Sequence record: NZ_CP128206.1
DNA length: 64,000 nt
From: a plasmid
Direction: 5' to 3' (one strand)
This document shows, piece after piece, positions 1,330 to 63,263 of this stretch. Each line of letters begins with the position of its first letter. Position 1 is the stretch's first letter. Made by a program: the position numbers and the translations under genes. Below the pieces are notes generated by a model. It was not told the DNA's origin and made no database searches. It worked only from the letters and a program-made list of their open reading frames with translations.

Positions 1330-1356
1330 CGGAGCGGGCCTGCTACCAGTCGTCGG

Positions 1357-3470: not shown

Positions 3471-3473
3471 TAT

Positions 3474-4732
3474 AGGAAGAATAAACGCCCTTTTCACCCA
3501 AGTCCAACAGCTTTGGACCGCAGTTGACTCTTTCGACACCCCTGCGATGCAACCCAATCCGGCTGACGGGGAGCCAGCAACGCTGAAAATTTACCCTCCT
3601 CTTTCCCACTAGCGGCTCCTTTTCCGACAACCAGCACGGCGGATCCCTGCCGCGGCGCTGTGAACGCAGCATTTTGATTGGTATCGTTGGCCTTCAGGCT
3701 CGTCAGTCAAACAGACCCAGGAGCAGCTCAGCCGGTGGCGCCCGGCTTTCGGGTAACGCCCTGGTCCCGCTGGTTTCGGCTTTGTGCTTCAGGTGATCAA
3801 GGATCTGCTTGATCACTATAGGGTCTTCAATGCAGGCGATGACTTTCATGGCGCCGCCGCAGCCGCTGCAGGTCTCGATGTCGATATTGAAAACACGCTT
3901 GAGCCGTTGCGCCCATGTCATCGACGCTCGCCGTTGTGCTGGTGTTGCCGGTTCATCAGCCACCCTGACCTTGTTGCCCCTGCCCCGTTTTGCCGGCGTG
4001 ACCAACGCCCGGTGCCGACTGTTGGGTGCGAACACCCCGTGGAAGCGGGTTAGGTTGACTCTGGGCTTCGGTACCAGGGCGGCCAGCCTTGCAATGAAAT
4101 CCAATGGTTCGAAAATGACGTGCGTGGTGCCGTCCCGGTACGGCGTCTTGAGCTGGTAGCGCACGTTGCCGCCTCGTGTTAACGACAGCCGCTTCTCGGA
4201 TACCGCCGGGCGGCTGATGTACCGGCACAGCCGTTCGAGCTTCTTGCGTTCATCGGCCCTGGCCGCCACGCCGGCGTGCAGGCTGGACCCGGCTACCTTG
4301 CCAATCCCGTCACCGAACGGATCACCACTGGTCGGCAGAGTTTGCAAAGTGAACACCTTTCGCCCCGCCTGTGAACCGACAGCGATACGGTAAGTGATCG
4401 AGTGCCCCAGCAGGGGTGTCATCGGGTCGTCATCCACCGCATCCGAGGCCAGATAGCTGTTTTCGACATCCCGTTCCAGCAGGCCTTGCCGTTCCAGATA
4501 GCGACCCACCCGGTGGGCGATGGTGTGCGTCAGCTGGGTGAGCTCTGGGCTGGTCGGCGCCTTGACCCAGCGGAAACGCGCTGAGCCGTGGGATTGCTCG
4601 ACATACACACCGTCGAGAAACAGCATGTGGAAGTGAACATTCAGATTGAGCGCCGATCCAAAACGCTGGATCAGGGTGACCGCGCCCGTCTTGGCCACTT
4701 GGTGGGTATGGCCCGCTTTCTTGACCAGGTGC
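3474..4732 (-). mobile_element. ISCR2 3' portion (oriIS-side end plus the C-terminal 331 codons of the transposase, 3703..4698)
   Basis: Identical to 5788..7050 of the complete copy. It breaks at the same internal position where fragment 450..1030 begins. Confidence 0.9.
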
Positions 4733-5080
4733 CAATACCCATCTTTGTATCAACTCCCCTTCCTGCCCGGCATCCCCGCAATTGATGACTTCAGAACAAG
4801 ATGCTACCAATTTTTCAATAACAGCAAATTGCCTTTTTACTCCATCGTTATCAATTAGTTTAATGCCAAATTTTTTAGGTACAATTGGCAGATCTTCCAA
4901 TTTCCAGTATTTCCAATTTTCTTTGTAATCATGGGGTTCATTCAATGTACACAGATGGCCAAAAGTCCAGGTTACCCAATAGCCATTTCCTTCATAAAAG
5001 CCGTTGTTGCGTTGTTTTGCACCAATTACTTCGGCAATATCTTTTGCCACAGAAGGTTTTTCAGCTATACATAAAATCAT
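4733..5080 (-). pseudogene. DNA topoisomerase III N-terminal (Toprim) fragment, ~115 codons, truncated by ISCR2
   Basis: MILCIAEKPSVAKDIAEVIG...NGYWVTWTFGHL...DAGQEGELI matches the TopB Toprim N-terminus. AT-rich, unlike its flanks. Confidence 0.7.
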
Positions 5081-5787: not shown

Positions 5788-7632
5788 GTATAGGAAGAAT
5801 AAACGCCCTTTTCACCCAAGTCCAACAGCTTTGGACCGCAGTTGACTCTTTCGACACCCCTGCGATGCAACCCAATCCGGCTGACGGGGAGCCAGCAACG
5901 CTGAAAATTTACCCTCCTCTTTCCCACTAGCGGCTCCTTTTCCGACAACCAGCACGGCGGATCCCTGCCGCGGCGCTGTGAACGCAGCATTTTGATTGGT
6001 ATCGTTGGCCTTCAGGCTCGTCAGTCAAACAGACCCAGGAGCAGCTCAGCCGGTGGCGCCCGGCTTTCGGGTAACGCCCTGGTCCCGCTGGTTTCGGCTT
6101 TGTGCTTCAGGTGATCAAGGATCTGCTTGATCACTATAGGGTCTTCAATGCAGGCGATGACTTTCATGGCGCCGCCGCAGCCGCTGCAGGTCTCGATGTC
6201 GATATTGAAAACACGCTTGAGCCGTTGCGCCCATGTCATCGACGCTCGCCGTTGTGCTGGTGTTGCCGGTTCATCAGCCACCCTGACCTTGTTGCCCCTG
6301 CCCCGTTTTGCCGGCGTGACCAACGCCCGGTGCCGACTGTTGGGTGCGAACACCCCGTGGAAGCGGGTTAGGTTGACTCTGGGCTTCGGTACCAGGGCGG
6401 CCAGCCTTGCAATGAAATCCAATGGTTCGAAAATGACGTGCGTGGTGCCGTCCCGGTACGGCGTCTTGAGCTGGTAGCGCACGTTGCCGCCTCGTGTTAA
6501 CGACAGCCGCTTCTCGGATACCGCCGGGCGGCTGATGTACCGGCACAGCCGTTCGAGCTTCTTGCGTTCATCGGCCCTGGCCGCCACGCCGGCGTGCAGG
6601 CTGGACCCGGCTACCTTGCCAATCCCGTCACCGAACGGATCACCACTGGTCGGCAGAGTTTGCAAAGTGAACACCTTTCGCCCCGCCTGTGAACCGACAG
6701 CGATACGGTAAGTGATCGAGTGCCCCAGCAGGGGTGTCATCGGGTCGTCATCCACCGCATCCGAGGCCAGATAGCTGTTTTCGACATCCCGTTCCAGCAG
6801 GCCTTGCCGTTCCAGATAGCGACCCACCCGGTGGGCGATGGTGTGCGTCAGCTGGGTGAGCTCTGGGCTGGTCGGCGCCTTGACCCAGCGGAAACGCGCT
6901 GAGCCGTGGGATTGCTCGACATACACACCGTCGAGAAACAGCATGTGGAAGTGAACATTCAGATTGAGCGCCGATCCAAAACGCTGGATCAGGGTGACCG
7001 CGCCCGTCTTGGCCACTTGGTGGGTATGGCCCGCTTTCTTGACCAGGTGCGTGGCAATGACGCGGTAAACGATGCCCAGCACCCACCCCATGATCTCGGG
7101 CCGGCTGGCAAACAGGAAACGCAGCTGAAACGGGAAGCTCAACACCCACTGACGCATGGGTTGTTCAGGCAGTACTTCATCAACCAGCAAGGCGGCACTT
7201 TCGGCCATCCGCCGCGCCCCACAGCTCGGGCAGAAACCGCGACGCTTACAGCTGAAAGCGACCAGGTGCTCGGCGTGGCAAGACTCGCAGCGAACCCGTA
7301 GAAAGCCATGCTCCAGCCGCCCGCATTGGAGAAATTCTTCAAATTCCCGTTGCACATAGCCCGGCAATTCCTTTCCCTGCTCTGCCATAAGCGCAGCGAA
7401 TGCCGGGTAATACTCGTCAACGATCTGATAGAGAAGGGTTTGCTCGGGTCGGTGGCTCTGGTAACGACCAGTATCCCGATCCCGGCTGGCCGTCCTGGCC
7501 GCCACATGAGGCATGTTCCGCGTCCTTGCAATACTGTGTTTACATACAGTCTATCGCTTAGCGGAAAGTTCTTTTACCCTCAGCCGAAATGCCTGCCGTT
7601 GCTAGACATTGCCAGCCAGTGCCCGTCACTCC
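5788..7632 (-). mobile_element. complete ISCR2 (IS91-family rolling-circle element) with oriIS-side end at ~5788 and terIS-side end at ~7632
   Basis: Contains an intact 497-aa transposase. Both ends are repeated in the partial copies. Confidence 0.93.
6021..7514 (-). CDS. ISCR2 transposase (IS91 family, HUH), 497 aa
   Basis: Full-length ORF. The N- and C-terminal parts are duplicated in the two partial copies. Confidence 0.93.
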   Translation of the reverse strand: MPHVAARTASRDRDTGRYQSHRPEQTLLYQIVDEYYPAFAALMAEQGKELPGYVQREFEEFLQCGRLEHGFLRVRCESCHAEHLVAFSCKRRGFCPSCGARRMAESAALLVDEVLPEQPMRQWVLSFPFQLRFLFASRPEIMGWVLGIVYRVIATHLVKKAGHTHQVAKTGAVTLIQRFGSALNLNVHFHMLFLDGVYVEQSHGSARFRWVKAPTSPELTQLTHTIAHRVGRYLERQGLLERDVENSYLASDAVDDDPMTPLLGHSITYRIAVGSQAGRKVFTLQTLPTSGDPFGDGIGKVAGSSLHAGVAARADERKKLERLCRYISRPAVSEKRLSLTRGGNVRYQLKTPYRDGTTHVIFEPLDFIARLAALVPKPRVNLTRFHGVFAPNSRHRALVTPAKRGRGNKVRVADEPATPAQRRASMTWAQRLKRVFNIDIETCSGCGGAMKVIACIEDPIVIKQILDHLKHKAETSGTRALPESRAPPAELLLGLFD

Positions 7633-7817
7633 CTGTCGTCTGGGCGTTCCTCTGGGCTAAACATCGACATGATCCGGCGCTTAATATCGCCGTCCTTGTT
7701 GACCAGCGTCTTGGTCACGAAGGCCGCGTATTCTTTGGCGTTGTCGTACCCTTTCCAGACCTCGTGGGGGTCAAGAGCGTAGGCGCAAACCCGCCCAGCG
7801 ACTGGGATTCTGACCAA
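7626..7817 (-). pseudogene. orphan gene fragment (63 codons) between the ISCR2 terIS end and the Tn3-family IS; unidentified
   Basis: Short ORF truncated on both sides by mobile-element ends. Confidence 0.25.
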
Positions 7818-7837
7818 GGCGCGTTCTGTCTCAAGGT

Positions 7838-10800
7838 GGGGTTCTAGGGATTTTCCCCTCTAAAAAGACATAATCCTCTGTAGACCACACCAATAAATGG
7901 CTGCGGAGGTGGTTTACTTTCAGCTTGGAGCCTAATCATCCACTATCGGCCTTGTTATTTCGCCAATATTGGGCAATTTCCCAGTATTAGTGAAGTTATA
8001 CGTTCCGCTTAAGTTGATATTTTGCCACGCAACGGGCGAAACAGCACGAGTGATACCCGCTTTCTCTTCATCTCCTCTCGCTTCAAAGTGTCCCAGAAGA
8101 TGACTCAGTATCGCGGAGTTGAAGTAGATGATCGCGTTGGCAAGCAATCTTGCGCATTCATTCCAGATAGCGATTTCAGACTCGTTTTTGCCACGGAACT
8201 GATCACCATTCACCGACGCAATGGCTCGTCTAAGGAAGTGCCATGCTTCTCCCCGGTTCAGGGCACGTTGCACATACTGCCGCAAACTGGCATCGTCGAT
8301 GTAGTCAAGTAAATATTGCGCTTTAACCAGTCGATTATACTCCGTCAGAGCCTGTAATATTGGGTGTCCAGAAGGGTAACCAGACAACTTTCTTACCAGC
8401 ATTGCTTGTGTCGTCCGCTTTGTCTGAAGTGACAGAACAATACGCCTGATATCTTGCCATCCCGTTGTAATAACATTCGTTCTGATAGGCTTCTTTAGCG
8501 CCAGTATGGTGCTGCCTTGTTCACTTTCAGTCACATCAAACAGATCATTGATGACACTACTGAACTGCGCGTATCGCGGTGCAAAACTGTAACCGCATAG
8601 ATCCAGTAAGGCGAAGTTAACATGATTGACACCGTGTGTATCTGTCGAGAGTACGTCAGGTTTGATTTCACTGCTGTTGGATTGTAACAGGTCATAAATA
8701 TAGTGTGATTCGTGCTCGTTGGAACCGATGATCCGAGCATTGAGGGCGCTGTGGTTGGCCACCAGTGTCATGGCCGTGATCCCTTTGTTGGTGCCGAAAT
8801 ACTTAGAGGAGTACCGGGTTTTAAAGGTTTCCAGATGGGTTTCGAATTTCTGACCATCCGCACTGGCATGCAGCTGGTCCTCCTGAATATGGTAGTGGCG
8901 GAAGATGGGTAGCGCTGCAACCGCATTATTGATCACGTCGCTGGCGTCATGCAGCGTTTCAGGCCGGATATAGTTGGCCTGCACCGTACTCAGGTGTTCA
9001 TAGCTTCGATCGGAGATCTGCGCCATGCCATACACACCACGGTGAGTGGCGTTGGCAATCAGAATGGCCAGTAAATCATCCTGATGAGTGAACCCTTGTT
9101 TTTGTATCGGAAGTACATGAGTCAGACATTTCATGAACCCGGTTTCGCGCTCTACATACCGCAGTACATCCGCGATACCGACCGGTTGCATTCGCTTAAA
9201 AAAGGGATTGTTGACCAGAGATGTAGCGCTTTTGGTCGGCAGACGCCAGCGGGTACCGGTACGATTTTTCATGATCACATTTCGATTGTCTCCCTCATCA
9301 ATATGGAGAGCAACGTCTTTGAGTGCACTTTCCAGCCGGTGTTGTTTCTCCTGTAACAATAACTCTGCGGGCTGTTTTAGTCTGTCCAGTGTTGATGAGG
9401 CCAGCAAGGTATCCTGCGATGTCTGGGGATCAGGTCGTCTTCCAGTGCGCGGTATTTGGTAACATTTGGCAAATAAATGCGTCCATTCAGTCGTGAGGTT
9501 AACTGCCGGTAGAGCAGCCATTCGTAACGTTGCGGGTTAACGTTATCCTGTTTAACCAACCATGGGAGGTGCTTTTTCGGGATGAGCGACGTATCCATCG
9601 TCTTCAGTGGTCCACCGAATGCGATTTCCGTCTGCATCTGTTGAAGTTGGGCGACGACGGCTTCTGAGCCTTTACCGGCCTCACATTCAAGGCACAAGAA
9701 CACCTGCCTTAACAGTTGCTCCAGGAGATTGCATTGTTCATCGTAATGTTGCCACTGGTACTCTTCCACGGTCCGTTTCTGTTTTTTCAGGTAAAGGCAG
9801 AGGGTCTGGATATCCCTGTCATTCATGACCTTCAATGCCTGTTGTCTGACTACTGAGAAGGGCTGATTGTCATCAATATTCTCGTCAACAAACAGGTGAA
9901 GTAGCTCTGCCGCTTTCGTGACATTGTCCGCAGCTGACTGCCAGGACAGGAACACTGCTTGTTGTGCAAAGGCGTTGGCGGCTTCCTGTTGTTTTCGGAT
10001 ATGGTAAACAAACCCATCCGTCAGGCGCTCCAGTGCAAGTTGCATGCGCTCTGTCAGATGACACAGTAACCACAGGTGCTGCTGTGAGCGTTTGAAGCGC
10101 CGCACTTTACTGCCGTAGTAATCAATAAGGCCGCTGAAGTGTTGTCGATTTTTTAGCGACAGATTGAGCCTGTCCACAACGTCATTTATTTGCGTGTGCC
10201 ATGGTGCTAACCGGTGGTAAATGGCGAGCTCTTTTTTAAGCTCAGGCACGGTCAGACTTTTGGCACCACCCCTGAGATGGCTCAGACTCAGCCCGTCGTC
10301 TTTAGTAGTGATTATGTTGTCCAGAAAGACGTTAAGTTCATTACTGGTAAGTTGATTCAGTTGGAGCGTCAGGTCTTTTCTGACCTGTTGCATTGTGCGG
10401 CTTATCAGTCTTTGAAGCACGGAGTACTTAGGAATGGCAATGTTATGGCTGGCAAGGTATTCAATGGCCGCATCAAAGAGGTGTCGAGGCTCCAGCCAGG
10501 CATGACCAATGTAAACCAGGTGGTGGCACAGAGCATTGAGGTGCTGTTTTTCATTCCACTTATTGTAATTTAGTAGACGCAGTATCCTTGAGTAAATACG
10601 GTCACGCTGCATTTTACTGACACTGAAAGGCCTGATCCCTTTACCTCTTTGAATTTGGGAGGCAATAAACTGCATGTCGATACTGATATCACGGAAACTC
10701 GGAGCAATGATCACTGGCTTAGATTTAAAATAGCCCAGAAGCGCCACGAAATAACAACGATGTTTAGTAAGCCTGATAGTACGGCATTCGGCCTGTTCTA

Positions 10801-12615: not shown

Positions 12616-15600
12616 TTAAAAATGCAGCTCTTCTATCCGACACGGTTTTCCGTATAAATAGCCTTGATAGGTGTGACACCCCATACTCTGCAATAACGCG
12701 CGCTGAGCTTCTGTTTCAACACCCTCAGCTATGACTTGCAGTTCAATTGAGTCGGCTAATGTTATAACTGCCTGAGCGATGGCCCTATCATTACTGCTAT
12801 TGATAATATCTCGAACAAACCCTTGGTCAATTTTCAACTGATTTATAGGCAATTGTTTTAAGTAGGATAAGGATGAATAGCCTGTACCAAAATCATCGAT
12901 TGAAAAAGTCACGCCGTGCTGCTGCAACTCTTTCATCTTAGCTTTAACATCAGGAATGTTATTTGCGAGCAACGTTTCCGTAATTTCCAGCTTTAGCAAC
13001 TGTGGATTTGCACCTGAGGTTTTCAATGCATTTAAAACAGTCTGAACAAAATTATCTTTGCTAAATTGAACTACGCTTATGTTAACCGCAATGCTTAGGT
13101 GTTGTTTTTCGGATTCTAAAGACCATTTTGCCAGAGTGGCGCAAGCTTCCTCTAGCACCCACTCGCCAATGGGCACAATAAGACCTGTTTCCTCCGCTAA
13201 TGGGATAAATTGCAGTGGCGACACCATGCCTTTTTCTGGGTGTATCCAGCGTAACAATACCTCAACACCAATACACTGCTTCAGGTGATTGACCTGTTTT
13301 TGATAGAAAAGTACAAATTGTTGGCTTTGTATTGCGGAGTATAAATCACTCACAATTGACGCTCTTGAGCTTACTGAGACTTGCATTTGCGGGTCAAAAA
13401 ACTGCACACCATTTCGGCCAGCATATTTAGCCTTGTACATAGCCATATCAGCTTGCTTTAACAAATCTTCTTTGGGTAGATTTTCACTGTTAAAAAGTGT
13501 TACACCAATGCTTGCCGAACTATTGTAAGTTAGACCGTCAAGATTATATTCCCTTGTTAAATTACTCACGATTTTTTGTGCAAGCCTCTCAGCCTGGTTC
13601 GCTGCTAATGTTGGTTCATGACTTAAATCTGATGCAATAATAACAAACTCATCGCCGCCTAAACGCGCTACGGTATCACCTTGTCTCACTGAGTTAACAA
13701 GACGCTCAGCGACCTGACCCAACAGCAAATCACCTTTATTATGACCAGCACTATCATTAAGGTTTTTAAAGTTATCTAAATCAAGAAAAAATAATGCTGA
13801 GAAGTTCCTTGTACGAACGCTATGATTTATAGCTTCCGTCAATCTGTCCAACAACAGACGTCGATTAGGTAGCAATGTTAATGGGTCATAAAATGCTAAC
13901 TGGTGAATTTCATTTTCACGTTGTTTACGCTCAGTGATATCCCTGACAACACCGATAAAGTTAACTTCACCAGCCATTTGAACTTCAACTATACTAAGCT
14001 CGATTGGAAACATAGAACCATCTTTGCGCAAGGCCTCAAGCTCACGAATACGCCCAGTAATCTCACTGACACCACGTTCTATATAATTTGATAAGTAGCT
14101 ATCGTGATGCTCTCGATGAGGTGACCCCATCAACATGCTAATATTTTTGCCAAGCGTTTCATCTTCCGTATAGCCGAAGATTTCCTGTGCGGCTTGGTTA
14201 AATGTCAGAATTTTACCACGACCATCAATAGTAATAATGCCATCAAGCAACCCTTCAACAACAGCTTCCATCTGCCTTGACTTATCACTAAGCGCTTTTT
14301 CTGCAATTATTTGGTCATTGATATCAAAGTGTGTACCCAATAACCATAGAGCTTTGCCATCATATATCCTTGAAGAAATACGCCCTCTGGTGTTTATCCA
14401 TATCCATTCACCATTTTTGTGTTTCATACGAAGATTGGCTTCATATATGGGTATTAGGCCTGACACGTGCTTTTCAAGAATAGTTGTACAATAAGCCAGG
14501 TCATCAGGATGCGTTAGCCTTTCCCACGTGTATCTGTTTGCAGGTAATAGCTCAGAAAGTGTGTAACCCAGTAATGCGGCCCATTTATCATTGATAATCA
14601 ACTCGCCTGTTTGAATATTAAAATGCCATGTGCCTATATTGTTAGCGTCTATTACGGCCTTAAGTAAATTCTGACTGTTCCTTATGAGCTCTTCATCCTG
14701 TTTCTCTTTTGTAATATCTGTTTCAATTGCAATATAGCCGCTCAAACTACCACTTTCACTAAACAGCGGGTTACAAGCTATTCTCACCCAGTAGGAATTT
14801 TGCGCTTTTGAATAATTTACAACATCAACATTAAAGCCGTTCTGTTGAGCAAGCGCATCTCTCATTATTGCAACAGTTGCCGGATCAGTGTCTTCCCCTT
14901 GTAATAACTCCCCAGGCTTTTTACCCTGCATTTCTTCAATGCTATATCCTGTAAGAAAGGAGAAGGCTTCATTAATCCATATAACTCGACCTTTGACATC
15001 AGTTATTACCACACCATTGGTTGTCTGCCTTGCAACTTCAGAAAGGCGTCTTATTTCTGACTGCGCTTCAACTTGTGCAGAGGTATTACGAATGACCACT
15101 AATACTTCATTATCATCAATCTTTTTGTATCGGGCTTCGAACGATTGATTTGACTTTTCAAACGTGTAGTTATGATGAATCACATCGTTGTTACAAAAGG
15201 CTTGCTTGAGGCACTCTACGAGTTGATGACCTAGCTCATTGGGTAGTATCTCATGAACGGTACGCCCCAAAATCGCTTGTTGAGGTTTAAGTAAGTCAGG
15301 ATGCTCTTTGCAAACCAAAAAACGAAAGTTTCGGTCAATAACAAATACCATATCAGGCAGTGTTGCCAGTATTGAGGTTGTTCTTGCCATGCCTTTTAAA
15401 AACTGCTCTTGAAGTCGAGCTTGATCTTCTTTGGCAATTTCATACTCAACCATGTCTGCAAATTCGCGCAGTTCTTGCTGCTCTTTTGCTGAAAAGTCTC
15501 TGGCCACGGAGTCAATTAGACATAGAGTGCCGATGGGTTGCCCACTTGTCTCTCGCAGCGGTGCACCCGCATAAAAACGAATATGCGGCGCGTGGGTTAC

Positions 15601-15909
15601 TAAAGGATTTGACGAAAAGCGCTCATCTTTTGTTGCATCTGAAACAATTAAAATATCCTCATGCAATATCGCATGGCCACAAAATGAGATATCACGGCCT
15701 GTTTCACAAGCGTCAAGACCCACTTTAGATTTAAACCATTGCCGGTCACTATCCACCAAAGAGATAAGGCATATTGGCACTTTAAATACAGACGCGGCTA
15801 ATCTTGTAATGCGGTCAAAGCGCTTCTCTGCTGGCGTATCCAGCAAATTACTTCGCTGTAATGCAAGTAAACGAGCAGCTTCATCAACAGGGAATTCAGG
15901 TGCGTTCAA
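12616..15909 (-). CDS. GAF-PAS/PAC(x3-4)-GGDEF-EAL c-di-GMP turnover protein (1097 aa)
   Basis: Intact GGDEF (RLGGDEFVII) with an RxxD I-site (RQGD) 5 residues upstream. EAL-domain motifs EVLLRW, AEETGLI, DDFGTGYSSLSYL and IAEGVETE are all present. Confidence 0.9.
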   Translation of the reverse strand: MNAPEFPVDEAARLLALQRSNLLDTPAEKRFDRITRLAASVFKVPICLISLVDSDRQWFKSKVGLDACETGRDISFCGHAILHEDILIVSDATKDERFSSNPLVTHAPHIRFYAGAPLRETSGQPIGTLCLIDSVARDFSAKEQQELREFADMVEYEIAKEDQARLQEQFLKGMARTTSILATLPDMVFVIDRNFRFLVCKEHPDLLKPQQAILGRTVHEILPNELGHQLVECLKQAFCNNDVIHHNYTFEKSNQSFEARYKKIDDNEVLVVIRNTSAQVEAQSEIRRLSEVARQTTNGVVITDVKGRVIWINEAFSFLTGYSIEEMQGKKPGELLQGEDTDPATVAIMRDALAQQNGFNVDVVNYSKAQNSYWVRIACNPLFSESGSLSGYIAIETDITKEKQDEELIRNSQNLLKAVIDANNIGTWHFNIQTGELIINDKWAALLGYTLSELLPANRYTWERLTHPDDLAYCTTILEKHVSGLIPIYEANLRMKHKNGEWIWINTRGRISSRIYDGKALWLLGTHFDINDQIIAEKALSDKSRQMEAVVEGLLDGIITIDGRGKILTFNQAAQEIFGYTEDETLGKNISMLMGSPHREHHDSYLSNYIERGVSEITGRIRELEALRKDGSMFPIELSIVEVQMAGEVNFIGVVRDITERKQRENEIHQLAFYDPLTLLPNRRLLLDRLTEAINHSVRTRNFSALFFLDLDNFKNLNDSAGHNKGDLLLGQVAERLVNSVRQGDTVARLGGDEFVIIASDLSHEPTLAANQAERLAQKIVSNLTREYNLDGLTYNSSASIGVTLFNSENLPKEDLLKQADMAMYKAKYAGRNGVQFFDPQMQVSVSSRASIVSDLYSAIQSQQFVLFYQKQVNHLKQCIGVEVLLRWIHPEKGMVSPLQFIPLAEETGLIVPIGEWVLEEACATLAKWSLESEKQHLSIAVNISVVQFSKDNFVQTVLNALKTSGANPQLLKLEITETLLANNIPDVKAKMKELQQHGVTFSIDDFGTGYSSLSYLKQLPINQLKIDQGFVRDIINSSNDRAIAQAVITLADSIELQVIAEGVETEAQRALLQSMGCHTYQGYLYGKPCRIEELHF

Positions 15910-16001: not shown

Positions 16002-17555
16002 TTACCGCTTAAACCGTACTACCAGTTCATGAAGCTCATCAGCAATCTTGTTCAAATAAATAATCGTCTCTGAAAGCTGCATCGAGCTGTCATTACTTAA
16101 ATCGGCAAGCGTTGAAATATTTACTATTTGCCGGTTAATGTCTTCAGCAACATGGGCTTGCTCTTCCACTGCTGCAGCCATTTGGGTCGACATAGAAGCG
16201 ATTTGACCTATGGATTCTGAAATACCGCTTAACATTTTGCCGCTTTCAATAACATTAGAGAGTCCCTCTTCGGCATCAATAGCGCCTGCATCAGCGATTT
16301 TTACGGCATCACCTGCTCGATGAGTTAACTCGGTGACGATACCGTAAATCTCTTTTGTCGACTCCTGAGTACGCCTTGCGAGATTTCTAACCTCATCTGC
16401 AACTACCGCAAAACCTCGCCCCTGCTCACCAGCACGAGCAGCTTCAATAGCGGCATTAAGCGCAAGAAGATTGGTTTGGTCGGCAATCTGCTCAATCATT
16501 TGTGCCGCATTGGCAATACGAGCGGTTTGTTCTGATACACCGCGAACAGAGCTACCAATTTGCTCTACCGTGAGTTTTAACTTTTGAATAGAGCCCCTGG
16601 TTACATTAGCCACCTCATTACCCTTCGAGGCAAGATGATTAGCGGTGTCAGCCTGTATTGCAGTATCACTGACATGCTTAGATACTTCAGCAATAGTCGT
16701 CGACATTTCGTTCATCGCGGTGGCGACTTGCATCGTTTCAGACTGCTGACTCTCTATATCTTTTCGCGTTTTTGCTGTGAGCTCCGCGCCTTTTTCAGAC
16801 TCTTTGGCAACGACAAGCGCTGCACTTTCTATGCGGGTAATCACCGTGCCTAAATGCGCTAACTGACTCAGAATAGCCACTTTTAGCTTACCTAAATCAC
16901 CTGTTTCATCAGTGTAACTTTGTACTGCAAGTTCATCTGAAAATGCAAGATTGAGCATCTCGTTTAATGCATTCAGGGTTTTCTTTCTATTTAATGAGAC
17001 CCAAAAGGCAAAGATGATGACAGAGACAAGCAAAGCTAACTCAGAAAGCTCTTTGAAACCGAAGCCAAATAAACCAGCACAAATGGCGATAGATAAGATT
17101 AAAAAAGCATTTTCAAGTGATATGGGTAAAGCGGCGCGTTTCGTTTTGCCGGCATTGATATCACGATACAGCTTAGCTGCTCGTTCAACGTCTTGTCTTG
17201 ATGGACAAGAGCGCACAGACTCATAACCGATCACCTTACCGTTCTGTGTTACTGGCGTAACATAAGCGTTTACCCAGTAAAAATCGCCATTTTTACAACG
17301 ATTTTTCACCAAGCCCATCCAAGGTTTTCCAGCTTTGAGGTAATGCCACATTTTTTCATATGCCTCTGAAGGCATATCAGGGTGCCTCACCACATTGTGA
17401 GGCTGCCCTATTAGCTCATGTTTTTCAAAACCACTGACTTCAACAAAGGCATCATTGCACTCAAGAATAGTCCCTTGAGTATCCGTGACTGAAATTAACT
17501 TAGTATTGCTTCCGAACGTTTTTTCTCTATCAGTAACAGGAAGGTTTTTACGCAT
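16002..17555 (-). CDS. methyl-accepting chemotaxis protein with N-terminal Aer-like PAS domain (517 aa)
   Basis: N-terminal PAS with NVVRHPDMP and [12 protein letters not shown] (Aer signature), then TM segments, HAMP and the MCP signalling domain. Confidence 0.9.
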
Positions 17556-54469: not shown

Positions 54470-55018
54470 ACAGGGCTTTGTTGCGTAATTCGAGGGAACT
54501 AAATCAGAAGGTTGCGATCTGATCGGCTAAGTAAGTTAATTATCCTAGTCTCATGCCGAAACCTCGCTACAAAACAACGAACTGGAAACAGTACAACAAA
54601 GCCTTAATCAACCGTGGTTCACTCACTTTCTGGATTGATGAAGAAGCCATTCGCCAGTGGAAGCAGAGCAAACAAGATAAACGAGGTAGGCCTCGCCAGT
54701 TCAGCGACTTAGCCATTACTACTGCGCTTATGGTGAAACGAGTTTTCTCAATGCCGTTGAGAGCATTGCAAGGGTTTATCGATTCTGTTTTTTCATTGGC
54801 TAACGTCCCTATAGTCTGCCCACATTACAGTTGTATCAGTCGAAGAGCTAAGCAAGTCGAGGTTTCATTTAAACCAAAGACTGGAGGTGCAATACAGCAT
54901 CTAGCCATTGATGCAACAGGTCTCAAGGTTTATGGCGAAGGTGAATGGAAGGTCAAGAAGCATGGTACTGACGGGAAGCGTAGAGTCTGGAGAAAGTTGC
55001 ATTTTGTAGTGGTACGGT
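54470..55018 (+). mobile_element. IS903-group IS, copy 3: left IR plus first 155 codons of a more divergent transposase (54553..55020), truncated by an IS3-family insertion
   Basis: IR GGCTTTGTTGCGTAATTCGAGGGAAC. The transposase is ~85% identical to copies 1 and 2 and ends abruptly at the IS3 terminus. Confidence 0.8.
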
Positions 55019-56290
<1,272 letters not shown>

Positions 56291-56554
56291 TTGTAGCATA
56301 GTGAACATGCTCACTAGGTTAGAGCTATTTTCAATACGCCCTGTAATCCATTAAATACTAAATTTGATATGCATGTAATTCAGAGATCTCCAAAAGCAAC
56401 CTGCTCGATACGTGGCAGCTTGCGTGCCTCCGGGTTAACTTCACTTCTATTTACACATCTCATAGAATGCCCAACTTATTGCTCAACAAATCTGTAAACT
56501 TTCTTAAATCACAATTATATGATGCGCTAAGTTTACTAAGATAATCAGTATTTT

Positions 56555-57628
56555 ATGATCATAAAAAACGAAATCAGACAAGTTCTATCATTGATTCTGC
56601 CAGTTTTATTAACGGCATCTATCGTTTCATACCTTGCGACCCTAATGCACCACCTGCCCACAACGCCATTGATGATCGCTTCGATAGGCGCTTCCATTAC
56701 AATTGTATTCGTTGTGCCAAGTAGTCCTATGGGGAGAACTTGGCCTGTTTTGGCAGGCCATCTGCTGCCGGCATTAGTTGGTGTATGTCTTACATCTTTG
56801 ATAGACGATGCGACAATACTTTGCTTAACGACGATAACGCTGAGCATTATTACGATGGTTATTTTTAAGTGCGTTCATCCGCCTGGTGTGGCCACAGCAC
56901 TGGTGCCAGCAATAAGCCAAAGTACGCAGCCAGCAATGGGACTCTCATTTCTTCTAGATCCGGTATTATTCAATATTATCCCGCTTATCATTTGTGGCTA
57001 TTTTTACCGTTGGTACCTCAACCACAGGGCATCTAAAAAAGAGTCATCAGGCTCAACATCAACACTCGCTCACAATAAAAGCTCTATCTTTTTTAGTGAG
57101 TTACATGAAACCATTGCAGCGAGAAATGAGTGGCTCGATATCGATGAGAGAACGCTAGACGATATTTTCAAACAGACTCATTTACTTGCGCTGGAACATC
57201 GGCATCAAAAATTGACTTGTGAGCATGTAATGACGAGCCGGTTGATAACATTGAAGCCGAATGACACTATCCATAAAGCATTGGAACTACTTCAGCAGAA
57301 TCAATTTACGGCTTTACCTGTGGTTGATGATGAGCATGAGCTTGTGGGGATATTTTCCTTGGTTGACTTTCTAAGAAGTGTTGAGAATAGAAAGTTTGAC
57401 TCATTTATCGCGCTTTACCTGCACGCAAAGAAAAAAGCCAAGAAAGAGGTAAGCCAATTTATGAATGCAGCGCCAGTGTTTATGCGCACGGATACCCATA
57501 TCGCGCGAATGATTCCTCTTCTAACATCAGGGTATCACCATATACCTATTGTCGATAATAGAAACCGACTTAAAGGCATGGTGACTCAATCAGACCTCAT
57601 TGAATTCCTTTACAATATCAAGGCCTAA
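56555..57628 (+). CDS. HPP-family membrane protein fused to a CBS-domain pair (357 aa)
   Basis: N-terminal multi-TM HPP region with HPP motif (VHPPG) and two C-terminal CBS domains. Confidence 0.75.
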   Translation: MIIKNEIRQVLSLILPVLLTASIVSYLATLMHHLPTTPLMIASIGASITIVFVVPSSPMGRTWPVLAGHLLPALVGVCLTSLIDDATILCLTTITLSIITMVIFKCVHPPGVATALVPAISQSTQPAMGLSFLLDPVLFNIIPLIICGYFYRWYLNHRASKKESSGSTSTLAHNKSSIFFSELHETIAARNEWLDIDERTLDDIFKQTHLLALEHRHQKLTCEHVMTSRLITLKPNDTIHKALELLQQNQFTALPVVDDEHELVGIFSLVDFLRSVENRKFDSFIALYLHAKKKAKKEVSQFMNAAPVFMRTDTHIARMIPLLTSGYHHIPIVDNRNRLKGMVTQSDLIEFLYNIKA

Positions 57629-57697
57629 CGATGCGTTTTTATAGTGTACAAGCCACTTAAAACCTATTCTTGACGCTGTGAAAGGGCGTTCGATGTT

Positions 57698-58375
57698 TCA
57701 AGTTATCCTGTCATCGAAGGGGACATCCAGCCCTAAACTCTCTTTTGCCCAAATGACGGCCTGAACCCTATTCTTTGCGTTGATTTTTTTGAATAGATTA
57801 TGCAGATGGGATTTTACGGTATTCAGACTTACGCCAAAATGCTCAGCGATTTCAGGGTTCGTTTGTCCTTTCACTAATAATTTAACGACCTCATGCTCAC
57901 GTTTGGTCAGCACGGCGCCTAGCATTCGGCTGGAGAGCACAGGGATATTGCTGCGAAAATGTAGGATATAGTCCTGAGAGAGTTGCCTGGACAGCCACAT
58001 TTCACCTTGCATGATTTTATGGGTGCCTTGCAAAATCTTGTCAATATAGTCATCTGCATAAAACACCCCATACAAATTGGGCCACTTGAATAAGTACGCC
58101 ACGCTGATGTCTCTCGGGCAGTTAATCAGTATTTCTTTGGCGTGTAAGCCTATCTGATATTTGATGTTGTAGTAGTTGTTCTCGAACTCATCCGTAATGT
58201 GGGCAAAATCAATAAAAATGTATTTTGCGCAGGTACTTTTCTCGATGCTCAACTGGCTGAAACGTTGTAATTCAACCGACAGAGGAAGGCTTCGCCCCAG
58301 AGTTTCTTTGAGCATGGTCGACGTAAGGCTTTCTTCTGAAAAAAGCAGGGCGTTCTGGATGCCTGGATAGTTCAT
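57698..58375 (-). CDS. VpsT/CsgD-family LuxR-type regulator (225 aa) with a W-L-S-R motif at the position of the VpsT c-di-GMP-binding W[F/L/M][T/S]R
   Basis: C-terminal LuxR HTH (EHEVVKLLVKGQTNPEIAEHFGVSLNTVKSHLHNLFKKI). N-terminal receiver-like domain with ...KIMQGEMWLSRQL. Confidence 0.8.
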   Translation of the reverse strand: MNYPGIQNALLFSEESLTSTMLKETLGRSLPLSVELQRFSQLSIEKSTCAKYIFIDFAHITDEFENNYYNIKYQIGLHAKEILINCPRDISVAYLFKWPNLYGVFYADDYIDKILQGTHKIMQGEMWLSRQLSQDYILHFRSNIPVLSSRMLGAVLTKREHEVVKLLVKGQTNPEIAEHFGVSLNTVKSHLHNLFKKINAKNRVQAVIWAKESLGLDVPFDDRIT

Positions 58376-58536
58376 GGGTACCTTTCGATATAGGCAATAA
58401 GTTGTCTATTACTCTACCGCGATGATTTTGTGTCTCAAGAGGGATGTGGCGAATTGTGATAACCGTCAACGTAGCAATAAAACACTCACCCATGGAAAGA
58501 GGGGGCGTCCGTGTTGTCATCGCCTGGTTATGGCAT

Positions 58537-58764
58537 TCACAGCTTTAATCGCACGTTAAGCTCTCCTGACACTCCCTTTGAATTAGGACAGTACTGCGTT
58601 AACGATATCTCCATGGCTTTAAGAAGAGCAATGTAGATGTCTTCCGGTTGCTCGTAACTGATAGCGTTGCTGTCGATGGAGAGTATGGTTTCACCCCTCA
58701 GAGAGAAATGGTACTGAAGACCATCGAGGCTGAAGGTCGGGGCCAACTGATTATTTGTTTTCAT
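58537..58764 (-). CDS. hypothetical protein (75 aa)
   Basis: ORF only. Confidence 0.3.
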   Translation of the reverse strand: MKTNNQLAPTFSLDGLQYHFSLRGETILSIDSNAISYEQPEDIYIALLKAMEISLTQYCPNSKGVSGELNVRLKL

Positions 58765-58962
58765 CGCGAATCTTCACATAGTTGCTGTATACCTTAACTT
58801 TAGTATTAGAAATGACAATACGCCACATTATGCTTATCAGCTTCAGACCAAAGAGTGAGAGCAGCCGTCACGTCACGCGGTCTGAAAGCCAGCGGCATGG
58901 TGCATTGTTATTGCGAGTAAAAGGGGGTTAAATGAGGGCTTCTTTGGCTCTTACGAACACGT

Positions 58963-59544
58963 ATGAAACACGATAGCGATTACTACTCACAACTGGCAGC
59001 GTTAGTGTGCCATGCATTGCTTCATCTTTTTATGGAAGTCTCCGCGACACCTCGGTTTGTGCCTGTCTCAAAGCGAAACGACATATTGGTTCGCTATCTC
59101 AAGCACAAGTTGAACGCGCGCCACGGTCATCAGTTCAAAAAGGACATCAAAGCCATGATTCAGTTAGGGCGCAGCCTTAACGGCAATTTAGAAGCCAAGC
59201 TTTTAAGCCTACATGACAGCATGACCATGGCGAATACGACCGATATGGCTAAGTTGCATGCTTTATTGCTGTATCTGAATGAGAGGCTGGGAGTAGAGTC
59301 CGAAGTCTTTCTTGAAGGACAAGAACCGAGTCCGGACATCCTCTATATGCTGGAAGAGCAAATCCAACACGGCTTCAACGACCACAAGCAGCAAGTGGCA
59401 CCGCTGTCGATGTTGCTTCAATCGGACCAAGCGCACCGACTTGAGTCTGTGGTGAATGAGCATGGTGGCTTTATTGCAGAAACCAAGGAATGGAACGCGG
59501 ACACTCAGCAGCTCCACCTGCTGCTGCATCCTTTGAGAGGTTGA
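58963..59544 (+). CDS. hypothetical protein (193 aa)
   Basis: ORF only. Confidence 0.4.
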   Translation: MKHDSDYYSQLAALVCHALLHLFMEVSATPRFVPVSKRNDILVRYLKHKLNARHGHQFKKDIKAMIQLGRSLNGNLEAKLLSLHDSMTMANTTDMAKLHALLLYLNERLGVESEVFLEGQEPSPDILYMLEEQIQHGFNDHKQQVAPLSMLLQSDQAHRLESVVNEHGGFIAETKEWNADTQQLHLLLHPLRG

Positions 59545-59571
59545 TGCTAAAGGCGCAAAAACGTATTCAGG

Positions 59572-59835
59572 CTAAATCGCATAGTCTGGTGAGATGTCTT
59601 CAATTTTCACCAAATGAACATCGACTTCGGAGAGCCGAGCAAAGGTGGGCTCATCTGAGGGTTGTTCGACAATATGGACGATATTGGCCACCCGATAACA
59701 CCCAGCGCTGGGTGCCTTGAAGAACACCGTTTCATCCAGTTTCGGCAATAGCGGAGTGGTATTGTCGACAGACGTAATTCGATTTCGGATAGATAGCGTG
59801 CCATCGGGCGCGACTTCATAAAAGTTAACAATCAT
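59572..59835 (-). CDS. hypothetical protein (87 aa)
   Basis: ORF only. Confidence 0.35.
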   Translation of the reverse strand: MIVNFYEVAPDGTLSIRNRITSVDNTTPLLPKLDETVFFKAPSAGCYRVANIVHIVEQPSDEPTFARLSEVDVHLVKIEDISPDYAI

Positions 59836-60601
59836 GCGCTTCTCTGGGGTTGTTCAGTGAATGTCCTGTACTAAAACAACGTGGCAGAATAATCAATGCC
59901 ATGATTGCAAAACTGACAAGTAGGACCTCTCGAACTACCCTTAAGTGGGTATCCTGCCTCTATTGCCCACCTCAGTATTACGGCCAACGTTGCGGCGGAT
60001 TTTTAAAAAGTGCTCATGCAATGTGAGAGATTTGAGATGAAAGAAAGAGTCTACCATGAGGCGCTGCTGGTTATTCAGGCACTGGTTGTGCCTGACACTC
60101 GGTATCCCGCGGCTTTTTGCACGAGAGACTTTATCCAGCAATGCCAGCTTTGTGGGATGTCTGGGAGCGTTAGCCTGTCCGACGCGAATCGGTTGTTGCG
60201 CGAACTGGCTCAAAGGAACGATGCGGTGTGGCAAGGCTGCCAATTTGACCCTGACTGCAACTTAAGTTGGAACTATCGCCGCTGAACTAATTGACGAATC
60301 CATGTTCCGCGCGGTTTGTTTCACCAGAGTCATTAGGACATGGGTCACATTTCTGCATCTCCGTTCATCGTGTCATGCACGTTTGCCTATACTGAGTGAA
60401 TAGAGGCCCTACCCAACCTCTATAATGTAAGTATCACGATTGATAAACCCTCAAAGCAGCCGCCGTTTGGCGGCTCTTTTTTTCAATGACTAAGCGCACA
60501 GTTCTCTCGCCATTCTTCCAAAATTGATTTACGAACAGAACGTCGTTCGTTTACAGTCAAGCATAACCACTCACGACCGACATGGATGTAAGAGGTGAAC
60601 C

Positions 60602-60814
60602 ATGATGCACAGCCATGCTGACAGTTGGGACCGATACCATGCTGCCTGCGAACGCCTGGCACTGCTCGAAGCCAGCTATACCCATACGCAGCACCGTTAT
60701 CTTCAAGGTCAGGTTTCTCAGGAAGTGTACGAACTGGCGTGGAGTCTGAAACTCTCGGCAGAGCGACAAGTCCGAATTTTACGTCACCAGCTCGCGATGG
60801 AAGTTTGCGGCTGA
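60602..60814 (+). CDS. hypothetical small protein (70 aa), immediately upstream of the EAL gene
   Basis: ORF ends 22 nt before the EAL gene start. Confidence 0.3.
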   Translation: MMHSHADSWDRYHAACERLALLEASYTHTQHRYLQGQVSQEVYELAWSLKLSAERQVRILRHQLAMEVCG

Positions 60815-60836
60815 GAGCAGAACGAAGGAGTCACTG

Positions 60837-62582
60837 ATGGCCCCCGTATCAACGTCAACTCAATCCGAATCGTCACGCACCATGGACCAGGCTGCTTTTA
60901 TCTCGGCGGCGGAGTCCAAAATGCACACCGCACGGTATCAGAACATCTCGCTGGTGCTTGCCATTAAGCCCGCCAGTCTGGATCCCAGAGCGTTTGACGT
61001 TTTCCACAAAGTCATGCAAACCGTGAAAAGTGCTCAGGTGGTCGGGAATCTGAATCAGAATTTCCTGTTGGTCTACGTGTGCGAACCGATATGCATTAGC
61101 CAAAACCAGGCCCGCGCGATTCATTTCAGCATTCGTCATTTCTTTTCTGAAGTGAAGCAGGCCGATGAGCGCATGTATCGGTTTTTAATTTCCGGGAAAG
61201 TTGGTGTGTCGGTGTTGGGGAAGGACACCCATTCCATGAAGACGGCAGTCGTGCATGCTTCTCAGGCGACATTGGCTCAGCAAGCCGGACATAAAAGCCG
61301 TATACAGTTCTACGATACCGATTTGCAACTGACGATTAAGCGCTACGTGCTGTTAGAGGACCTTGTACGAGATGCCATCGAGAAAGGCGCGATAGGCGTT
61401 CAGTACCAACCTATTATACGGTGTCAGGACTGGGTGGTGGCTGGCTATGAGGCGCTGTGCCGTTTTAACCTGGACGCGGCGCTTAACGCGACAACCACGG
61501 AGTTGATTGGGCTCGCTGAAGATTTAAATCTCATCTCAGAGCTGGATTTACTGACTTACCAGAACGCGTTTTCCCAGTGTGCGCCGTGGCTGAAAAAGTC
61601 CGGTCGTTTCCTGAATCTCAACCTTTCGCCGAATACCCAACAGAGTTTGTCCGAAGTCCTGGAATGCATGGTGCTGCTTGCGAAGCAGGAGCAAGTCGAG
61701 CCACGGCACATTGTCATCGACATGAATGAAGTCAAAAGCCCAGCGGCAACGCTCGATGTCTCAACGTTACTCCCGGAGTTTCGTCAGCGGGGCGTACAGT
61801 TTGCGCTGGACGACTTGTCCGAGGGATTCCGACTGGCTGACCTACTGAGCCAAGGACAATTTCAGTACCTCAGAGTCAGCCGCGAGCTGATTGAACGCAG
61901 CCATGAGCGGGGGGAATACTACCAGGTCATTAAGCTGTTGGTCAGACTATGCCACCGCCTGGACGTTGAGGTGATTGCTGAAGGTATCGAAACGCCGGAC
62001 GAAGCCCGTTTGCTGTCTTACCTGGGGGTGGACTATATGCAAGGGTACCTGTTTGCTAAGCCGGTTGATTATGGCGACCTACAGGAGGCGGAGAAACAGC
62101 TCGAGACGATACTTCGACAGCTGCATGCCGATGGCCTGACGGATAGCTCGGATGCGGATGAAGAAGCCATCACCTTACTCAATATTGCCAGCAAAAGCCT
62201 GCCTCGTTTAGACCCCGGTGAGCCGCTCATCCTGGCTAACGAATACTTAAAACCCGACGCCATTAATGTGATCCCCGTTATCAACAAAGGGGAATGTGTC
62301 GGATTGGTGGACAAAGCTCAGCTCAATCTTCATCTGACTCCGGCCATGGGAACTGAACATAAAACCATGAAAGAAGCAGGCATCTGGAATAAGCCTGTTG
62401 CCAGTATGATGAATACGCAACTGACCATCATGGACGCACAGGCGCTGCTCACGGATGTGCTCCCGTTACTCAAAGAGAGCGCGCTTTCTCTGCCCATCGT
62501 TTTGGTCTCCGATAATCGCTATAAAGGCTTGGTGACGGAAACGGACATTACACACTATCTCTTAAAGCGGCTAAAATTGTAG
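60837..62582 (+). CDS. degenerate-GGDEF / EAL / tandem-CBS protein (581 aa); EAL signature motifs partly degenerate
   Basis: EAL-domain motifs QYQPII and GYEALCRF are present, but DDFGTGYSSL is replaced by LDDLSEGFRL. No GGDEF motif in the N-terminal domain. CBS pair at the C-terminus. Confidence 0.75.
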   Translation: MAPVSTSTQSESSRTMDQAAFISAAESKMHTARYQNISLVLAIKPASLDPRAFDVFHKVMQTVKSAQVVGNLNQNFLLVYVCEPICISQNQARAIHFSIRHFFSEVKQADERMYRFLISGKVGVSVLGKDTHSMKTAVVHASQATLAQQAGHKSRIQFYDTDLQLTIKRYVLLEDLVRDAIEKGAIGVQYQPIIRCQDWVVAGYEALCRFNLDAALNATTTELIGLAEDLNLISELDLLTYQNAFSQCAPWLKKSGRFLNLNLSPNTQQSLSEVLECMVLLAKQEQVEPRHIVIDMNEVKSPAATLDVSTLLPEFRQRGVQFALDDLSEGFRLADLLSQGQFQYLRVSRELIERSHERGEYYQVIKLLVRLCHRLDVEVIAEGIETPDEARLLSYLGVDYMQGYLFAKPVDYGDLQEAEKQLETILRQLHADGLTDSSDADEEAITLLNIASKSLPRLDPGEPLILANEYLKPDAINVIPVINKGECVGLVDKAQLNLHLTPAMGTEHKTMKEAGIWNKPVASMMNTQLTIMDAQALLTDVLPLLKESALSLPIVLVSDNRYKGLVTETDITHYLLKRLKL

Positions 62583-62972: not shown

Positions 62973-63263
62973 GTGATGCTCATTTGTGACGATACCAGAC
63001 AGTTCATCATCGCGACAATTGACGATATGCAGACTCGTCTCAGTGACGATAAGCCGGTCTGCGCTCGCTTACAGTTGACGAATGACTGGCTCAAGCTTTG
63101 GATTGACTATCAATACTGGAATATGGTTTTTCATCTCGAGCGACCGGTTGAAGGGATGCTGGCAACGTCAGAGCTGAATATCTTCGCGTTTACGGCTGAG
63201 CATATTGCTGATGCATTAATCAGAGACTTGGAAGAGAAAGTCGATGTGACTGAAGATGAATGA
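62973..63263 (+). CDS. hypothetical protein (96 aa)
   Basis: ORF only. Confidence 0.3.
   Translation: MMLICDDTRQFIIATIDDMQTRLSDDKPVCARLQLTNDWLKLWIDYQYWNMVFHLERPVEGMLATSELNIFAFTAEHIADALIRDLEEKVDVTEDE

Follow-up and report, generated by a model that had tools for sequence, protein, structure and literature searches.

A mobile block of Vibrio furnissii and Vibrio fluvialis with a VpsT paralog and a non-canonical EAL-CBS protein: a candidate c-di-GMP reader and partner

Can the mobile DNA of vibrios carry its own reader of cyclic di-GMP (c-di-GMP), and do the genes that lie around such a reader act together with it? This question is raised by a stretch of 64,000 nucleotides from a plasmid (sequence record NZ_CP128206.1; the whole stretch is called the window below), in which a regulator resembling VpsT is encoded near an HPP-CBS membrane protein and a 581-amino-acid protein with GGDEF, EAL, and CBS regions (EAL-CBS). 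A first-pass annotation had described these genes as a c-di-GMP regulatory neighborhood on accessory DNA. We consider it reasonably probable that they form part of a mobile block with a VpsT-paralog c-di-GMP reader and a non-canonical EAL-CBS partner. The regulator is encoded as follows:

57698..58375, minus strand: VpsT-family regulator, 225 amino acids, with a VpsT-like receiver (amino acids 11-130) and a LuxR/GerE helix-turn-helix (HTH; amino acids 155-210)
57986..57997, minus strand: W-L-S-R motif of the regulator, amino acids 127-130, homologous to VpsT W131-L-T-R134

The receiver domain matched the whole Pfam VpsT-like_REC profile (PF21155, positions 1-124 of 124, E 2.7e-30), and the HTH matched GerE (1.1e-19, amino acids 155-210). 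The closest solved relative was V. cholerae VpsT (PDB 3kln; E 1e-60), with 48% identity over nearly the full length (3kln residues 9-221). W127-L128-S129-R130 aligned column for column with VpsT W131-L132-T133-R134; W and R were invariant in a 14-sequence family alignment, and S129 fits the allowed W[F/L/M][T/S]R motif. Judged by this alignment, WLSR is a match at the homologous position and not a chance occurrence of the motif. The equivalents of VpsT I141 (I137) and D60 (D56) were also invariant in the family alignment, while VpsT M17 is conservatively replaced by L17. In the 2010 work of Krasteva et al., I141 is said to be the hydrophobic residue at the c-di-GMP-stabilized dimer interface of VpsT. 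The HTH was 63-66% identical to that of VpsT, with a nearly identical recognition helix, and the receiver domain was 38-44% identical to those of VpsT proteins. In contrast, the regulator missed the threshold of the NCBIfam CsgD model (NF007505; 135.5 bits vs a cut-off of 250), and the CsgD N-terminal domain in PDB (5xp0) was matched at E 5e-10. On these comparisons, the regulator is far nearer to VpsT than to CsgD, and its first-pass description as a VpsT-like protein with an intact W-L-S-R motif held when it was aligned with both proteins.

The c-di-GMP contacts of VpsT have been reviewed as K120, W131, L132, T133, and R134 (PMC7288161). Of these, K120 corresponds to Q116 in the regulator, at a position where family members have K, R, Q, V, or I. 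This replacement, the modest identity of the receiver domain to VpsT proteins, and the lack of a cyclase in the block as it stands in the window would all fit a regulator that works independently of c-di-GMP, in the manner of CsgD, with WLSR merely inherited as family sequence. We regard this alternative as very unlikely: the family alignment keeps W127, R130, and I137 without exception, S129 lies within the allowed motif, the distance to CsgD is far greater than that to VpsT, and the V. fluvialis regulator gene adjoins one for a cyclase whose I-site is intact.

The regulator is not the VpsT of the species, because V. furnissii has a separate gene (L038, on a 1.64-Mb contig of strain CIP 102972, found in a scan of representative genomes) whose product is 72% identical to V. 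cholerae VpsT, whereas the regulator is only 48% identical. The vpsT gene has been reported on chromosome II (PMC4139957), which agrees with this ortholog. The regulator and the ortholog were 44% identical overall; their receiver domains shared 38% identity and their HTHs 63%. In a large protein collection, relatives of the regulator at about 96% identity were found only in V. fluvialis and V. furnissii, and the next were at most 48% identical. The regulator is thus, by sequence comparison, an extra divergent paralog beside the resident V. furnissii VpsT ortholog; the label “Transcriptional regulator VpsT,” given by one source to a member of its cluster, is wrong by orthology. The regulator resembles V. 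cholerae VpsT (VCA0952; PDB 3KLN/3KLO) in its receiver and LuxR HTH, its full-length identity, its motif, the I141 and D60 equivalents, and its recognition helix. It differs in being non-orthologous, in the Gln at K120, and in being carried by plasmids and integrative elements and not at a core locus of the chromosome, with no vps or rbm genes nearby.

V. parahaemolyticus CpsQ, CpsS, and ScrO provide a precedent for several VpsT/CsgD-family c-di-GMP readers in one Vibrio genome. These paralogs are chromosomal and linked to the cps and mfp loci, whereas the plasmid regulator lies on mobile DNA together with an EAL-CBS gene. Two relatives from the V. harveyi clade (P0103 and P0114) shared the motif and were 42% identical to the regulator.

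Is the 581-amino-acid protein an enzyme or a receptor? Its gene and domains are as follows:

60837..62582, plus strand: 581-amino-acid protein with a degenerate GGDEF region, a non-canonical EAL domain, and a CBS pair, assigned from domain searches, a structural model, and a residue table
60876..61331, plus strand: degenerate GGDEF-like domain, amino acids 14-165, assigned from profile comparison, the AlphaFold (AF2) model, and Foldseek
61365..62063, plus strand: EAL domain, amino acids 177-409 (Pfam EAL, 4.8e-47)
62154..62564, plus strand: CBS pair, amino acids ~440-576 (Pfam CBS, two stretches in the C-terminal 160 amino acids)

The first 175 residues gave no Pfam match, GGDEF included, even at E 10. 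Comparison with the GGDEF profile by hhalign aligned this region over 137 columns (92% probability, E 6e-7); the position of the GGDEF motif reads NQNFL (nucleotides 61053-61067), and the D-x-FK-x-ND metal- and substrate-binding segment falls in alignment gaps. An AF2 model of the N-terminal domain, built with 37 homologs, had a pLDDT (predicted local distance difference test) of 87 and a pTM (predicted template modeling score) of 0.83. The top Foldseek matches to it were all GGDEF domains, namely those of PA0575, MorA, YfiN, DgcZ, LapD, and FimX and a V. cholerae GGEEF domain (including 5m3c, 4rnh, 7a7e, and 6eib). The model and the profile indicate a domain of GGDEF fold that is predicted to be dead as a diguanylate cyclase.

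The EAL domain was examined in a residue table of 21 cluster representatives of the 581-amino-acid family (38-99% identity), 14 longer paralogs, and 41 GGDEF-EAL proteins. The metal and substrate ligands are intact: Q191, E205, R209, N262, E298, D325, D326, E382, E385, and Q402 are kept, as are the EAL and QYQP motifs. Three sites are altered. Asp295 replaces the first Glu of ExxE, with Asp in 21/21 family members and Glu in 41/41 canonical proteins. DDLSEGFRL stands for the canonical DDFGTGYSS of loop 6 in every family member. The catalytic Lys and the Asp of KxD are replaced by Arg346 and Ser348, respectively; Arg occurs in 20/21 of the family compared with Lys in 41/41 canonical proteins, and the KxD Asp is usually Ser in the family. 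All 41 GGDEF-EAL proteins and most of the long paralogs, including those of V. cholerae, V. vulnificus, and V. metschnikovii, were canonical. Between the plasmid gene and a V. fluvialis copy, 54 synonymous and 6 non-synonymous differences were counted, giving a ratio of non-synonymous to synonymous substitution rates (dN/dS) of about 0.03. This pattern points to an EAL domain that is maintained and non-canonical, with no decay. The earlier description of a degenerate GGDEF-EAL-CBS protein that keeps EAL and QYQP, has lost DDFGTGYSS, and is unlikely to be a standard phosphodiesterase is borne out by these residues, with the changes in ExxE and at the Lys added to that in loop 6.

The residue table also bears on the alternative that the protein is the eraser of the block and not a receptor, that is, an active CBS-regulated c-di-GMP phosphodiesterase in which Asp and Arg do the work of Glu and Lys. 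Such an enzyme would agree with the intact ligands and the retained general-base Glu of EGVE, with the low dN/dS, with nearest longer paralogs that are canonical enzymes, and with the replacements themselves, which conserve charge and are fixed in 20-21 of the 21 representatives, suggesting functional residues over drift. We nevertheless think it unlikely that the protein is such an enzyme, given the family-wide DLSEGFRL in loop 6 and the usual Ser for the KxD Asp. Studies of RocR-type EAL domains by Rao et al. in 2008 and 2009 reportedly found catalysis to be efficient only with loop 6 and the Lys in place, which counts against an eraser. EAL domains with altered signature residues have been classed as being of uncertain or absent activity (PMC12900916), which counts in the same direction. 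On its residues, the 581-amino-acid protein most likely has a receptor or trigger role.

This assignment recalls LapD and FimX, which also combine a degenerate GGDEF with a non-canonical EAL domain in tandem; the N-terminal model matched their GGDEF domains, and the EAL ligand residues are kept. The 581-amino-acid protein keeps more catalytic residues than LapD or FimX. It lacks the HAMP and periplasmic module of LapD and the REC-PAS region of FimX and has a C-terminal CBS pair instead; the domain scan detected no HAMP or transmembrane region, and the score with the NCBIfam LapD model was 58.8 bits vs a cut-off of 1020. Proteins of about 820 amino acids in V. cholerae, V. vulnificus, and V. 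metschnikovii (P0150, P0155, and P0146) carry degenerate GGDEF, EAL, and CBS regions in the same order and are 29-36% identical over the whole 581 amino acids, but they have an N-terminal PAS domain and a canonical EAL site (ELTE, DDFGTGY, KID, EGVE, QG). By this comparison, the 581-amino-acid family is a truncated branch of the ~820-amino-acid proteins with a diverged active site. A separate variation was seen in two proteins of about 810 amino acids from V. fluvialis and V. cincinnatiensis (P0142/P0143), in which ExxE is DxxQ, loop 6 is DDMGTDYSL, and the Lys is kept; the V. fluvialis one is a second, chromosomal EAL-CBS paralog.

On what DNA do the two genes travel? The window was 100% identical to V. 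furnissii VFBJ07 plasmid pVFBJ07-1 (NZ_CP128202.1, 71,247 bp) and 99.1% identical to two further V. furnissii plasmids of 76 kb each. The paper on the strain describes the plasmid and leaves the HPP-CBS, regulator, and EAL-CBS genes unmentioned (PMC11027346), and RefSeq gives these plasmid genes only generic names. Megablast revealed a 10.65-kb block common to the plasmid and to elements of V. furnissii chromosome 1, with 98.7-99.5% identity, spanning window position 55005 to about 1.66 kb beyond the window end. Its gene order is IS3, HPP-CBS, regulator, DUF2913, an 87-amino-acid open reading frame (ORF), a 70-amino-acid ORF, EAL-CBS, a 95-amino-acid ORF, and a 472-amino-acid gene. The V. furnissii chromosomal elements carry an integrase on one side and AlpA, RepA_C, and NikA plus a relaxase on the other, and at least three V. 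furnissii strains have both the chromosomal and the plasmid copy. The V. fluvialis copies are about 97% identical and lie within islands whose flanks are of at least three kinds, often adjoining an integrase; one variant lacks HPP-CBS and abuts narIJHG-narK-narX. The block was found in at least five flanking contexts with integrases, a relaxase, and the IS3 element, and its core, from the regulator to EAL-CBS, was intact across three arrangements and at least five insertion contexts. The block is therefore accessory DNA that moves, in V. furnissii and V. fluvialis, between plasmids and chromosomal elements that bear integrases and relaxases. Placing these genes on accessory DNA was correct as regards a mobile block; the block is not confined to the plasmid. 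The other features of the block are as follows:

55005..56400, plus strand: IS3-family insertion sequence at the left block end, with rve and HTH_21 domains in the ORF at 55441-56280
58376..58962, no strand: divergent intergenic region of 587 bp between the regulator and DUF2913 genes, with one weak sigma-70-like site at 58438-58411 (minus strand)
58963..59544, plus strand: DUF2913 protein, 193 amino acids (Pfam DUF2913, 5.8e-20), present in every block arrangement
59572..59835, minus strand: conserved 87-amino-acid ORF, called in every copy, with no family match
60458..60475, plus strand: strong terminator-like, GC-rich hairpin with a stem of 7 pairs (6 G-C) and a T-run after it, just upstream of the 70-amino-acid ORF and EAL-CBS
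60602..60814, plus strand: conserved 70-amino-acid ORF, 22 bp upstream of EAL-CBS, with no family match
62973..63263, plus strand: conserved 95/96-amino-acid ORF downstream of EAL-CBS, after which the shared block runs past the window end into the 472-amino-acid gene

Megablast identity with three chromosomal copies (L021-L023) starts at window position 55005, and the chromosomal copies have an intact 399-amino-acid IS3 transposase at the same position. At this left end, a truncated IS5-type transposase ORF (window 54553-55020) abuts the IS3 element, 55005 being the start of block identity. The DUF2913 gene is cut to 129 amino acids in four copies (L010, L015, L025, and L027) and may be dispensable. 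A role of the block in anti-phage defense was considered and rejected: PADLOC gave generic HTH matches only, and a CBS match to NCBIfam DS11 was far under the threshold. Elsewhere in the window, the G+C content was 0.58-0.60 at positions 1-5000 and 6000-8000, which hold a BCCT transporter and a mechanosensitive channel, compared with 0.40-0.47 over most of the window, a foreign-looking composition.

The side of the regulator gene that faces HPP-CBS differs between the species. In the V. fluvialis islands, a 294-amino-acid GGDEF gene lies between HPP-CBS and the regulator (L012:11446-12330; Pfam GGDEF 2.4e-42, with a GGEEI motif and an RxxD I-site). This gene is absent from every V. furnissii copy, whether on a plasmid or a chromosome, and in its place the plasmid has a short junction:

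57660..57737, no strand: 78-bp junction replacing a 1,290-bp V. fluvialis segment with the GGDEF gene and coding for the C-terminal tail that the regulator has on the plasmid, defined by blastn boundaries and DNA alignments

The final nine codons of the regulator contain the breakpoint, so that its tail reads VPFDDRIT on the plasmid vs AKPNDIKAE. Right after HPP-CBS, the V. fluvialis islands also have a remnant of about 100 bp (L012:11099-11200) that is 72% identical to the HTH-coding 3′ end of the regulator gene. From this similarity, the remnant is taken as what is left of a second VpsT-like gene and as the trace of an earlier rearrangement; the junction beside the regulator has undergone at least two rearrangements. 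Loss of the GGDEF gene by simple recombination between the regulator 3′ end and the 72% remnant was rejected, since it predicts 1,309 bp vs the 1,212 bp observed and the 78-bp junction is absent from the islands.

Does HPP-CBS belong to c-di-GMP signaling? The gene is the first after the IS3 element:

56555..57628, plus strand: HPP-CBS membrane protein, 357 amino acids, with an HPP transmembrane domain that has the HPP motif, followed by a CBS pair

The protein matched Pfam TM_HPP (PF04982) at 2e-28, with 99 bits vs a cut-off of 27, reads KCVHPPGVA, and has two CBS stretches; its dN/dS was 0.14-0.17. In V. navarrensis, V. natriegens, and V. japonicus, orthologs that share 57% identity with it are immediate neighbors of norW-norV-norR, and that of V. 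navarrensis is situated between norW-norV-norR and narXL-hemerythrin. In cyanobacteria and chloroplasts, nitrite is transported by a member of the HPP family (Maeda 2014, cited in PMC7438415). From its norVW-norR neighbors and the HPP-family nitrite transporter, HPP-CBS is most likely related to nitrite or nitric oxide (NO), which is more plausible than a role as a c-di-GMP component. It shares with the cyanobacterial and chloroplast transporters the TM_HPP domain with the HPP motif, and its Vibrio neighborhood is tied to nitrogen-oxide metabolism. It differs from them in its C-terminal CBS pair and, for the plasmid gene, in lying on mobile DNA away from nor genes.

In V. diazotrophicus (L003), an EAL-CBS ortholog occupies the position equivalent to that of HPP-CBS, beside the same methyl-accepting chemotaxis, TehB-like, and norVW-norR genes. 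A general nitrate/NO link for EAL-CBS was rejected, as this arrangement was seen in V. diazotrophicus only and not at P0133 or P0138, and the link was kept for HPP-CBS only. A common origin of the CBS pairs of HPP-CBS and EAL-CBS was likewise rejected, the two being only 24% identical. A gdhA gene is located directly upstream of the V. japonicus HPP-CBS ortholog (L057:5514-6866), and another is located about 4 kb past EAL-CBS on the plasmid (record 11300-12652).

Are the products of the block functionally coupled? We infer such coupling, and several results weigh against it and against the c-di-GMP reader with its EAL-CBS partner. Besides Q116 at the K120 position, the regulator is linked with EAL-CBS and HPP-CBS only among copies at least 96% identical; because all linked copies are so similar, the linkage is a single evolutionary observation and no independent evidence of coupling. 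The position behind a terminator-like hairpin suggests that EAL-CBS is a separate transcription unit, probably co-transcribed with the 70-amino-acid ORF. The intergenic regions of the block contained the T-box consensus WRSYWWRSYW (PMC8754643) as often as expected from shuffled sequence, a 10-bit motif too degenerate to decide. Finally, the changes from Glu to Asp and from Lys to Arg in the EAL domain are conservative in charge, and because both conserve charge, the 581-amino-acid protein may have some residual or slow phosphodiesterase activity. With regard to RNA elements, Rfam searches for c-di-GMP riboswitches and other RNAs gave only a match to isrC, an Hfq-binding small RNA, inside the IS3 element (55074-55196, plus strand; 39.4 bits vs a gathering score of 39).

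A wider sample of neighborhoods comprised EAL-CBS orthologs with 38-82% identity in four other genomes and the 48%-identical relative of the regulator. None of the EAL-CBS orthologs, in V. diazotrophicus, V. cyclitrophicus, V. proteolyticus, and one further assembly, had a VpsT-like or HPP-CBS neighbor, and no EAL neighbor was found beside the regulator relative. At canonical vpsT loci, homologs of block genes were not found, with only generic GGDEF-domain similarity a few kb off. Conservation of the neighborhood was therefore rejected as evidence of coupling, since the partner genes were missing in all sampled ortholog loci. The idea of a c-di-GMP regulatory neighborhood thus stands for the identities of the regulator and EAL-CBS and is weakened by orthologs that are unlinked elsewhere and by the ties of HPP-CBS to norVW-norR. 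Likewise, the regulator had been described as flanked by two CBS proteins; both ORFs are where they were placed, but EAL-CBS is 2.46 kb off, beyond the DUF2913, 87-amino-acid, and 70-amino-acid genes.

These neighborhoods raise the alternative that the genes are linked only physically, in a mosaic of unrelated cargo built by insertion sequences or recombination in which each gene acts independently. The solitary EAL-CBS orthologs in unrelated contexts of other vibrios, the nor/nar neighborhood of the HPP-CBS orthologs, the V. fluvialis arrangement without HPP-CBS, the repeated rearrangement of the junction by the regulator, the separate transcription units, and the near identity of every linked copy would all be expected of such a mosaic. 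It would not account as readily for the unbroken regulator-to-EAL-CBS core in three arrangements and at least five insertion contexts, for the purifying selection on all block genes, or for the V. fluvialis GGDEF gene directly by the regulator, a coincidence that is hard to credit for a c-di-GMP reader. We consider a mosaic of this kind doubtful, but a serious contender, and favor the mobile block with a VpsT-paralog reader and an EAL-CBS partner.

What would supply the c-di-GMP? A further enzyme is encoded on the plasmid:

12616..15909, minus strand: 1,097-amino-acid protein with GAF, three PAS, GGDEF, and EAL domains, with canonical signatures in both catalytic domains

This protein has the canonical form of the GGDEF motif, the RxxD I-site, and the EAL signature. 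Its gene lies about 41 kb from the block, outside it, and is absent from every chromosomal block copy. The full writer/eraser/reader set claimed in the first-pass annotation is thus valid as an inventory of the window and not as a property of the block. Because the dedicated cyclase of the V. fluvialis type is absent, c-di-GMP on the plasmid would have to come from host cyclases or from this GAF-PAS-GGDEF-EAL protein. Methyl-accepting chemotaxis genes recur by c-di-GMP genes, at window 16002-17555 (minus strand) beside the 1,097-amino-acid gene and at L003:9733-10899 and L005:11069-12361 beside EAL-CBS orthologs of two other species.

In the mechanism that we propose, two c-di-GMP molecules would bind the W-L-S-R motif and stabilize a receiver-domain dimer via the I137 interface, and the dimer would then bind T-box-like DNA through its VpsT-like HTH. 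The element would thereby add a second c-di-GMP-responsive input to the VpsT-type regulon of the host or to its own genes. VpsT itself controls a cyclase operon in a feedback loop (PMC8754643). Most likely, the 581-amino-acid protein would bind c-di-GMP and be a sensor, or a trigger protein, or a phosphodiesterase that works very slowly, and its CBS pair would probably gate it through an adenosine-type ligand. HPP-CBS may have been co-opted as an input or may be mere linked cargo.

A bolder version, which we put forward very tentatively and regard as quite improbable, is a self-contained transferable reader cassette, in which the VpsT paralog joins the host VpsT regulon, the EAL-CBS sensor tunes it, HPP-CBS gives a nitrite/NO input, and a cyclase is added in V. 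fluvialis. Together with its local cyclase in V. fluvialis, such a cassette may be likened to the DgcM/PdeR/MlrA module that controls CsgD in E. coli. If it were real, the elements could switch biofilm growth of the host by nitrogen oxides, favoring their own retention and transfer.

This study also provides insights into the cargo of mobile elements in vibrios. Mobile cyclases are documented, namely DgcK and DgcL on integrative and conjugative elements of the SXT/R391 type and the island-borne Dgc137/139/140 of V. alginolyticus, and V. fluvialis is among the species concerned (PMC10672970). The block resembles them in that c-di-GMP genes are the cargo of integrative elements or islands; however, those genes are writers only, whereas this block carries a reader and a probable sensor, with a writer just in the V. 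fluvialis copies. No account of a mobile reader of the VpsT type was found in the literature searched. The block proteins are new members of known families, and current understanding is not overturned. The 581-amino-acid family, with a ligand site under strong purifying selection and Asp and Arg fixed at two catalytic positions, offers a test case in which the roles of receptor, trigger, and slow enzyme could be told apart. A transferable reader could change which genes respond to c-di-GMP, beyond changing its level as cyclases do, and plasmids and integrative elements could in this way alter the biofilm behavior of an emerging diarrheal pathogen.

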